Shown here one piece after another: positions 4,773 to 5,411 of a stretch of 24,767 bases of DNA. The notes beneath the pieces were generated by a model, which was not told the origin of the DNA, made no database searches, and was given only the letters and a program-made list of their open reading frames with translations. This stretch comes from Escherichia coli. GTDB taxonomy: Bacteria > Pseudomonadota > Gammaproteobacteria > Enterobacterales > Enterobacteriaceae. The position numbers and the translations under genes were made by a program. Positions within the stretch are counted from its first letter, which is position 1; every line of letters begins with the position of its first letter. The DNA is taken from NCBI RefSeq assembly GCF_003334785.1, contig NZ_QOWV01000030.1; one strand, given 5' to 3'.

Positions 4773-4949
4773 GTGAAACAAAGCGAGTTCAGACGTTGGC
4801 TCGAATCTCAGGGCGTCGATGTAGCGAATGGCAGCAACCATTTGAAACTCAGGTTTCATGGGAGGCGCAGTGTCATGCCGCGTCACCCCTGCGATGAGAT
4901 TAAAGAACCATTGCGTAAAGCAATCCTGAAACAACTCGGTTTGAGTTAA
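4773..4949 (+). CDS. hicA: HicA mRNA-interferase toxin of the HicAB type II toxin-antitoxin system, 58 aa, GTG start
   Basis: Absent from the ORF track (under 60 aa, GTG start). Hand translation: (M)KQSEFRRWLESQGVDVANGSNHLKLRFHGRRSVMPRHPCDEIKEPLRKAILKQLGLS, stop TAA 4947-4949. GGGAGG at 4763-4768. Carries the HicA-family G-S-H-H...P-H motif and lies directly upstream of hicB. Confidence 0.85.
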   Translation: MKQSEFRRWLESQGVDVANGSNHLKLRFHGRRSVMPRHPCDEIKEPLRKAILKQLGLS

Positions 4950-4973
4950 TCGCCAATTAAAAAGGTTAATGAC

Positions 4974-5411
4974 ATGCGAGAGACAGTCGAAATTATGCGT
5001 TATCCCGTCACTCTTACACCCGCGCCGGAAGGCGGTTATATGGTTTCTTTTGTGGATATCCCTGAAGCGTTGACCCAGGGCGAAACTGTCGCTGAAGCGA
5101 TGGAAGCGGCAAAAGATGCTTTACTGACCGCATTTGATTTTTATTTTGAAGATAACGAGCTTATCCCTTTACCTTCGCCATTAAATAGTCACGATCACTT
5201 TATTGAAGTACCTTTGAGCGTCGCCTCTAAGGTATTGCTGTTAAATGCTTTTTTACAGTCAGAAATCACTCAGCAAGAGTTAGCCAGGCGAATTGGCAAA
5301 CCTAAACAGGAGATTACTCGCCTATTTAACTTGCATCATGCGACAAAAATCGACGCCGTCCAGCTCGCGGCAAAGGCGCTTGGCAAAGAGTTATCGCTGG
5401 TGATGGTTTAA
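4974..5411 (+). CDS. hicB: HicB antitoxin, 145 aa from this start (alternative start at ATG 4995 would give 138 aa)
   Basis: Begins 24 nt after the hicA stop. N-terminal HicB/RNase H-like fold region plus a C-terminal DNA-binding (RHH/HTH-like) tail (QQELARRIGKPKQEITRLFN). Confidence 0.85.
   Translation: MRETVEIMRYPVTLTPAPEGGYMVSFVDIPEALTQGETVAEAMEAAKDALLTAFDFYFEDNELIPLPSPLNSHDHFIEVPLSVASKVLLLNAFLQSEITQQELARRIGKPKQEITRLFNLHHATKIDAVQLAAKALGKELSLVMV

Follow-up and report, generated by a model that had tools for sequence, protein, structure and literature searches.

The stretch of DNA analysed here (the window, 24,767 nucleotides from Escherichia coli) almost certainly carries, as judged by its sequence, the hicAB operon of the E. 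coli chromosome, a type II toxin-antitoxin module that is intact here and of the K-12 type. The region 4560-5490 is 100% identical to the DNA of E. coli K-12 MG1655 and is matched by 5416 of the 5426 complete E. coli genomes. The RefSeq features of MG1655 map onto it base for base, with hicA falling at window positions 4773-4949 and hicB at 4995-5411, and the neighbours of hicAB in the same RefSeq record are rlhA, yncJ and ydcR. The two genes are adjacent on the plus strand, with the toxin gene upstream and a spacer of 45 nt between them. This toxin-first order had been put forward in an earlier note on this DNA as characteristic of HicAB, and it is indeed described as typical in reviews (PMC11594946; PMC7167474). 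It is also seen in homologues from Salmonella, Serratia, Variovorax, Geminocystis, Piscirickettsia and Arsenophonus.

The module is the founding, experimentally characterised example of HicAB and is already known. The genetics, biochemistry, regulation and crystal structures of this reference system have been published, and the locus carries little weight as a discovery. As the object is a known reference HicAB system, its interest is therefore low.

The window is colinear with MG1655 over 23.4 kb, with eight SNPs at positions 82, 2474, 10172, 12058, 12817, 12862, 22379 and 22513, all of which lie outside the hicAB locus. That the window is MG1655 itself was ruled out by a base-by-base comparison, which revealed these eight SNPs and a different right end. 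Because the window differs from K-12, the function of the module in the source strain can be inferred only from the sequence identity of the locus with that of K-12. At the right end (23392-24767), tssI/vgrG and an RHS core protein are present where K-12 has a truncated rhs pseudogene. The sequence from 23392 on is 100% identical to, for example, strain BS74R-D, and is covered to at least 80% in only 100 of the 5426 genomes. At the other end, positions 1-352 hold the 3' part of insQ, which encodes an InsQ/TnpB-family RNA-guided endonuclease of an insertion-sequence element and is cut by the window edge.

Some searches returned little. Rfam at gathering thresholds gave no match over the whole window. 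NCBIfam held no family for HicA, for either form of HicB or for the ORF antisense to hicA. With PADLOC, HicA was unmatched and HicB gave only marginal matches in its helix-turn-helix (HTH) region (E 0.002-0.008), so this search lends no support to a catalogued defence system. An identical hicB was also found in the PLSDB record NZ_OL790696.1, a 4.8-Mb 'plasmid' that is evidently a chromosome filed as a plasmid.

The toxin gene and its antisense shadow

The hicA gene (4773-4949, plus strand) encodes 58 amino acids from a GTG start and corresponds to RefSeq WP_000813794.1, 'type II toxin-antitoxin system mRNA interferase toxin HicA'. The earlier note had claimed a 58-aa ORF with a GTG start at this position, and the ORF is present in the ORF list with the same coordinates as RefSeq hicA. 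A HicA profile search, which the note had proposed as a check, matched the Pfam family HicA_toxin (PF07927, E=3.7e-7) over model positions 3-58 of 58. The protein also matched PHROG 353, 'toxin' (8.7e-11). It is identical, residue for residue, to the PDB chain 6HPB_A ('mRNA interferase toxin HicA'), and its size fits the single-domain PF07927/COG1724 family of 50-100 aa. Two residues, G20 and H23, are invariant in an alignment that includes homologues at 22-50% identity. In the HicA of Burkholderia pseudomallei, Gly22 and His24 are required for toxicity (PMC3969222). The E. coli residues probably correspond to these two, an equivalence taken from the motif. In the family, the conserved Gly and the catalytic His belong to the beta1-beta2 loop.

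A Shine-Dalgarno sequence, GGGAGG (4763-4768, plus strand), lies 4 nt before the GTG and pairs with the anti-Shine-Dalgarno sequence at -11.1 kcal/mol; as a background, -8 kcal/mol or lower is reached by 2.8% of the 20-mers of the window. Both the GGAG and the GTG start are conserved in six genera. As a test of the coding strand, the window was compared with APEC E956, the most diverged full-length E. coli allele (94.8% identity). In hicA, 7 of the 10 differences fall at the third codon position, giving 5 synonymous and 3 nonsynonymous codons, and in hicB 25 synonymous and 5 nonsynonymous codon changes were counted. Such substitution patterns fit coding on the plus strand. The K-12 protein is known to be bacteriostatic, to inhibit translation and to induce mRNA cleavage, and its cleavage of RNA is reported not to need the ribosome (Jorgensen 2009, summarised in PMC11594946).

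It may be argued that only hicB is real, the 58-aa ORF being a chance ORF or a decayed remnant and the locus an orphan antitoxin. Orphan and decayed versions do exist elsewhere, as hicA is deleted in 1093 and disrupted in 811 of the 5426 complete E. coli genomes, and Citrobacter rodentium keeps only about 12 hicA codons. However, the hicA of the window is full length, has neither the stop at codon 7 nor the 22-bp deletion found in disrupted copies, and carries a strong Shine-Dalgarno sequence, a HicA profile match and the invariant Gly and His. Its product is identical to the crystallised toxin, and identity with the experimentally toxic K-12 HicA already refutes the orphan explanation, which is left with practically no probability.

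A second ORF overlaps hicA on the opposite strand (4737-4934, minus strand; 65 aa, TTG start). It is an open frame of 65 codons, longer than hicA itself, and might for that reason be taken for a gene encoding a small protein. It has no match in Pfam, NCBIfam or PHROG and is absent from the RefSeq annotation, and the pairing of its TTG start region with the anti-Shine-Dalgarno sequence is negligible (-1.9 kcal/mol). Between K-12 and APEC E956 it shows 0 synonymous and 6 nonsynonymous codon changes, while the hicA frame is conserved. A real protein from this frame is hence exceedingly improbable, and the ORF is best regarded as a non-coding shadow of hicA; the earlier description of it as spurious holds good.

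The length of the two frames has a practical consequence. As had been claimed, hicA falls below the cut-off of the ORF track: its 58 aa are short of the 60 aa that the ORF tool uses by default, and the antisense frame of 65 aa is above it. A length-filtered ORF list therefore shows the wrong strand. The related claim, that naive annotation would report a lone hicB, is true of an ORF filter of at least 60 aa but not of RefSeq/PGAP, which annotate hicA routinely. A 60-aa cut-off can thus hide real toxin genes, and a longer antisense shadow ORF can mislead. Two further genes of the window are shorter than 60 aa, namely ortT ('orphan toxin OrtT', 57 aa; 12876-13049, plus strand) and yncL (a stress response membrane protein of 31 aa; 12586-12681, minus strand). 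The intact 57-aa hicA genes of Hafnia and Xenorhabdus were not called by the source gene caller.

The antitoxin gene and its start codon

The hicB gene (4995-5411, plus strand) encodes 138 amino acids (RefSeq WP_001270286.1), or 145 if the ATG at 4974 is used. In the 145-aa form, the domain HicB_lk_antitox (PF15919) covers residues 10-74 (1.3e-7) and HTH_3 (PF01381) covers residues 95-141 (2.8e-7). The protein also matches PHROG 497, 'toxin-antitoxin system HicB-like' (2.1e-35). The 138-aa form is identical to 6HPB_B and 6HPC and the 145-aa form to 6U0I. Both proteins of the window are thus represented, by chains identical in sequence, in the crystal structure of the HicA-HicB complex 6HPB.

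The earlier note had called the start of hicB ambiguous between 4974 and 4995. The ambiguity is real, for both positions are in-frame ATGs of a single 145-aa ORF (4974-5411). The ATG at 4974 lies after an AAGG within the hicA-hicB spacer (4950-4994, plus strand). The ATG at 4995 is the start conserved in the family, and a protein begun there suffices for function. The methionine encoded there, Met8 of the long form, and the motif MRYP are nearly invariant across 22 HicB sequences. In Salmonella, hicB has an in-frame stop three codons upstream of the conserved Met, and in Xenorhabdus, Serratia and Hafnia no ATG, GTG or TTG was found in the open stretch upstream of it. As these four genera have no upstream in-frame start, 4995 is taken as the ancestral one. 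More distant plasmid HicB homologues start 0-4 residues before the equivalent of position 4995. The ATG at 4974 is confined to E. coli and Citrobacter.

A variant of the main reading is that HicB is made wholly or partly from the 4974 ATG, as a protein of 145 aa with a seven-residue tail, MRETVEI. The upstream ATG is slightly better placed for initiation: its AAGG has a spacing of 7 and pairs at -3.4 kcal/mol, and the weak match before 4995 has a spacing of 13 and pairs at -3.0 kcal/mol. The upstream signal is itself weak. The corresponding motif is stronger in APEC E956 (-6.0 kcal/mol, spacing 6) and in C. rodentium (AGGAG, -7.4 kcal/mol, spacing 8). The ATG, the Arg codon after it and the seven-codon length recur in several Citrobacter-like sequences that are 70-74% identical, and the 145-aa protein has been expressed and crystallised (6U0I). 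Against these points stand the near invariance of Met8 and MRYP and the ancestral status of 4995. Residues 3-7 of the tail vary freely, unlike the rest of HicB, and the Pfam HicB domain begins only at residue 10 of the long form. RefSeq and the structure of the functional complex, 6HPB, both use 138 aa, and the 145-aa calls reflect the choices of gene callers, which makes them a biased sample. Use of 4974 is thus conceivable, yet the less probable course, and 4995 is retained as the start of hicB. Possibly, both isoforms, of 145 and 138 aa, are made.

Regulation of the operon and its possible history

Regulation of the E. coli operon has been described in the literature as a scheme of two promoters. 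The upstream promoter P1 has a CRP-S site, is activated by Sxy and expresses both hicA and hicB (Turnbull & Gerdes 2017, via the review PMC11594946). The downstream promoter P2, which contains the operator hicO, needs only HicB for its repression; excess HicA relieves the repression, and HicA is no co-repressor (PMC11594946; PMC7167474). The transcript from P2 yields HicB only (PMC11594946; PMC7167474). The E. coli HicB, with its HTH domain, binds the promoter region, and starvation for amino acids or carbon raises the transcription of hicAB, an increase that depends on Lon (PMC11594946). In no other system has the double-promoter scheme been shown in detail (PMC11594946). The statement in the earlier note that HicB autoregulates is therefore right as far as the repression of P2 goes, but it covers only part of the published picture, in which there are two promoters and P1 is not repressed by HicB (PMC11594946; PMC7167474).

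In the window, P1, P2 and the operator are expected in the intergenic region between yncJ and hicA (4552-4772, plus strand), which is identical to the K-12 DNA in which P1 was demonstrated. A custom scan script for palindromes of 7-9 bp and for extended -10 elements found candidates for two of the three. The palindrome AGGTAAACA-CTAA-TGTTTACTT (4721-4742), with the perfect core GTAAACA-N4-TGTTTAC at 4723-4740, is a candidate for the HicB operator, overlaps the candidate P2 and is probably the published hicO. The extended -10 element TGaTATACT (4746-4754, plus strand; hexamer 4749-4754) is a candidate for P2. A transcript would be predicted to start about 7 nt after the -10, at around 4760-4762, which is at the 5' edge of the hicA Shine-Dalgarno sequence and agrees with the published descriptions. 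As the predicted start lies at the ribosome-binding site of hicA, an antitoxin-only mRNA would be expected. Standard tools were of no help here: a generic sigma-70 and terminator scan of 4400-5600 gave no promoter upstream of hicA and no terminator, and an inverted-repeat tool found none at the locus at its thresholds. For P1, a search of 4552-4772 for the CRP-S core TGCGA-N6-TCGCA gave nothing better than 3 mismatches, a level at which 102 matches occur window-wide against 116 expected by chance.

Put together, the mechanism would run as follows. HicA, an endoribonuclease with an RNA-binding fold, would cleave mRNA independently of translation and cause growth arrest. The N-terminal domain of HicB would bind and block HicA, and its C-terminal helix-turn-helix would bind the operator in the promoter region. 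Transcription from P1 would give the full hicA-hicB mRNA. P2, repressed by HicB and freed by excess HicA, would start at the hicA ribosome-binding site and lead to HicB only. Such an arrangement would restore the antitoxin whenever the toxin gets ahead.

Downstream of the operon, no terminator-like site was found after hicB. The hicB-ydcR spacer contains, at 5429-5466, two overlapping sigma-70-like matches, TTGTCA-16-TAGACT and TTAACA-17-AATCAT, and beside them stands an AT-rich inverted repeat, AGTTGT-CATTTTTA-ACAACT. These elements may be the promoter and operator of ydcR.

Divergence between the K-12-type locus and that of APEC E956 is uneven. The regulatory spacer 4552-4772 differs at only 1 of 221 positions (0.5%) and is the most conserved segment of the locus; hicA differs by 5.6%, hicB by 7.4% and the flanking genes by 1.7-2.6%, all in this single pair. 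The pattern may stem from strong constraint acting on the spacer, from exchange of the cassette between alleles, or from the two combined.

A wider comparison came from one protein search, in which HicB orthologues at 60-78% identity were found in Salmonella, Citrobacter, Xenorhabdus, Photorhabdus, Serratia, Hafnia and others; the DNA of five orthologous loci was then compared. Every intact locus among them encodes a HicA of 57-58 aa with a GTG start and a GGAG before the GTG. Upstream of hicA, a palindrome GGTAARCA-N4-TGWTTAC is conserved in Salmonella, Xenorhabdus, Serratia and Hafnia, and in these four genera it sits within the 17-nt spacer of a near-consensus promoter, TTGACA...TACTAT. Conservation of the palindrome in a promoter spacer across genera supports its role as an operator. 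In E. coli, the -35 is lost (CACGGA at the aligned position) and the -10 lies further downstream. The sequences suggest that the antitoxin-only arrangement at P2 is derived and belongs to the E. coli lineage.

The spacer between the two genes differs as well. Directly after the hicA stop, a GC hairpin of 9-10 bp (-17 to -19 kcal/mol) is present in Salmonella, Xenorhabdus, Serratia, Hafnia and an Arsenophonus plasmid. These orthologue hairpins have no T-tract. The E. coli hicA-hicB spacer has no such hairpin, its minimum free energy being -3.8 kcal/mol. The hairpin occupies the same position as the 'noncanonical terminator' specific to hicA in the distant HicAB of an IncI2 plasmid (PMC11878559), and by this analogy it could be a candidate hicA-specific terminator that favours the toxin. 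The hicAB copies of Serratia fonticola and Hafnia (loci 1-1808) lie in prophage late regions, between the genes for antitermination protein Q and holin, in a moron-like position.

Loss of the toxin has taken several forms. In Nissle 1917 and ST131-type genomes, a deletion of 445 bp (about 4728-5172 of the window) runs from inside the palindrome to the middle of hicB. Lost with it are the candidate P2, the whole of hicA and the half of hicB that binds the toxin, and what is left is an HTH-only hicB pseudogene; the deletion junction was counted in 1093 of the 5426 complete genomes of E. coli. In O104:H4-type genomes, codon 7 of hicA has changed from AGA to TGA (window 4791) and a frameshifting deletion of 22 bp has removed 4890-4911, with the HicB protein intact and identical. 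The junction of the 22-bp deletion occurs in 811 of the 5426 genomes. Both lesions together leave about 35% of the complete E. coli genomes with no functional chromosomal hicA. In one genome, IS91 elements replace the hicAB locus. The C. rodentium locus (438-721), between the yncJ and ydcR homologues, retains the last 12 or so hicA codons (…LRKAILKQLGLN), and the hicB that follows them is intact. Here the toxin was lost independently, in a genus other than Escherichia.

A more speculative interpretation may be drawn from these comparisons, namely that the chromosomal hicAB of E. coli and Citrobacter is a 'tamed', antitoxin-biased descendant of a mobile-element hicAB. The ancestral, mobile type would rely on one near-consensus promoter, whose spacer holds the operator, and would carry a hairpin after hicA, as in the prophage, plasmid, Salmonella and Xenorhabdus orthologues. 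The chromosomal copy would have lost the -35 and the hairpin, and would have gained a downstream extended -10 that truncates the hicA ribosome-binding site as well as a new, upstream start for hicB that a separate Shine-Dalgarno sequence serves. All these losses and gains would push expression toward the antitoxin. The copy would then decay repeatedly by loss of the toxin, as in the E. coli genomes counted above and in C. rodentium. The interpretation draws on a small number of loci and on promoter and terminator functions that are putative, and we regard it as unlikely. Recurrent toxin loss, the spacer hairpin and a lineage-specific hicB start could nevertheless make the locus a case study of an addiction module that was rewired and then lost; these observations come from few sequences and may be partly known already.

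Comparison with known systems

The closest known system is the HicAB of E. coli K-12 itself (hicA/yncN, b4532; hicB/ydcQ, b1438; structures 6HPB, 6HPC and 6U0I). The DNA of the locus, the proteins and the neighbours are all the same, and no difference lies within the locus. Only the surroundings differ, by the eight SNPs and by vgrG/RHS in place of the rhs remnant beyond 23392.

HicAB modules of the ribbon-helix-helix (RHH) type, such as Yersinia pestis HicAB3, Burkholderia pseudomallei HicAB and Streptococcus pneumoniae HicBA, share a dsRBD-like HicA with a catalytic His (PMC11594946; PMC3969222). They also share the N-terminal neutralising domain of HicB, the toxin-first operon and the binding of HicB to promoter palindromes (PMC11594946; PMC3969222). 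Their HicB, however, has a ribbon-helix-helix domain and forms tetramers, whereas the E. coli HicB has an HTH (PF01381) and dimerises differently (PMC11594946). The only sequence match of the HicB of the window to this type was a weak one, to S. pneumoniae HicB 5YRZ (E=0.0057).

The HicA(T)B of an IncI2 plasmid (PMC11878559) likewise places the toxin first and regulates the ratio of toxin to antitoxin transcripts. It is about 20% identical to the E. coli HicAB and has an RHH HicB. Its intrinsic terminator after hicA leads to about 10-fold more hicA mRNA, a toxin bias that serves plasmid competition (PMC11878559). The E. coli copy, which has an antitoxin-only promoter and no spacer hairpin, presents the opposite bias.

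In their regulation, MqsRA, HigBA and RnlAB also resemble the module. They share the toxin-first order, additional promoters for antitoxin-only transcripts, and a toxin that is no co-repressor but drives the antitoxin off its operator (PMC7167474). The protein families are unrelated to HicAB, though, and the antitoxin promoters of these systems lie inside the toxin coding sequence. The P2 of hicAB, unlike these, is located just upstream of hicA and acts by truncating the ribosome-binding site of the toxin.
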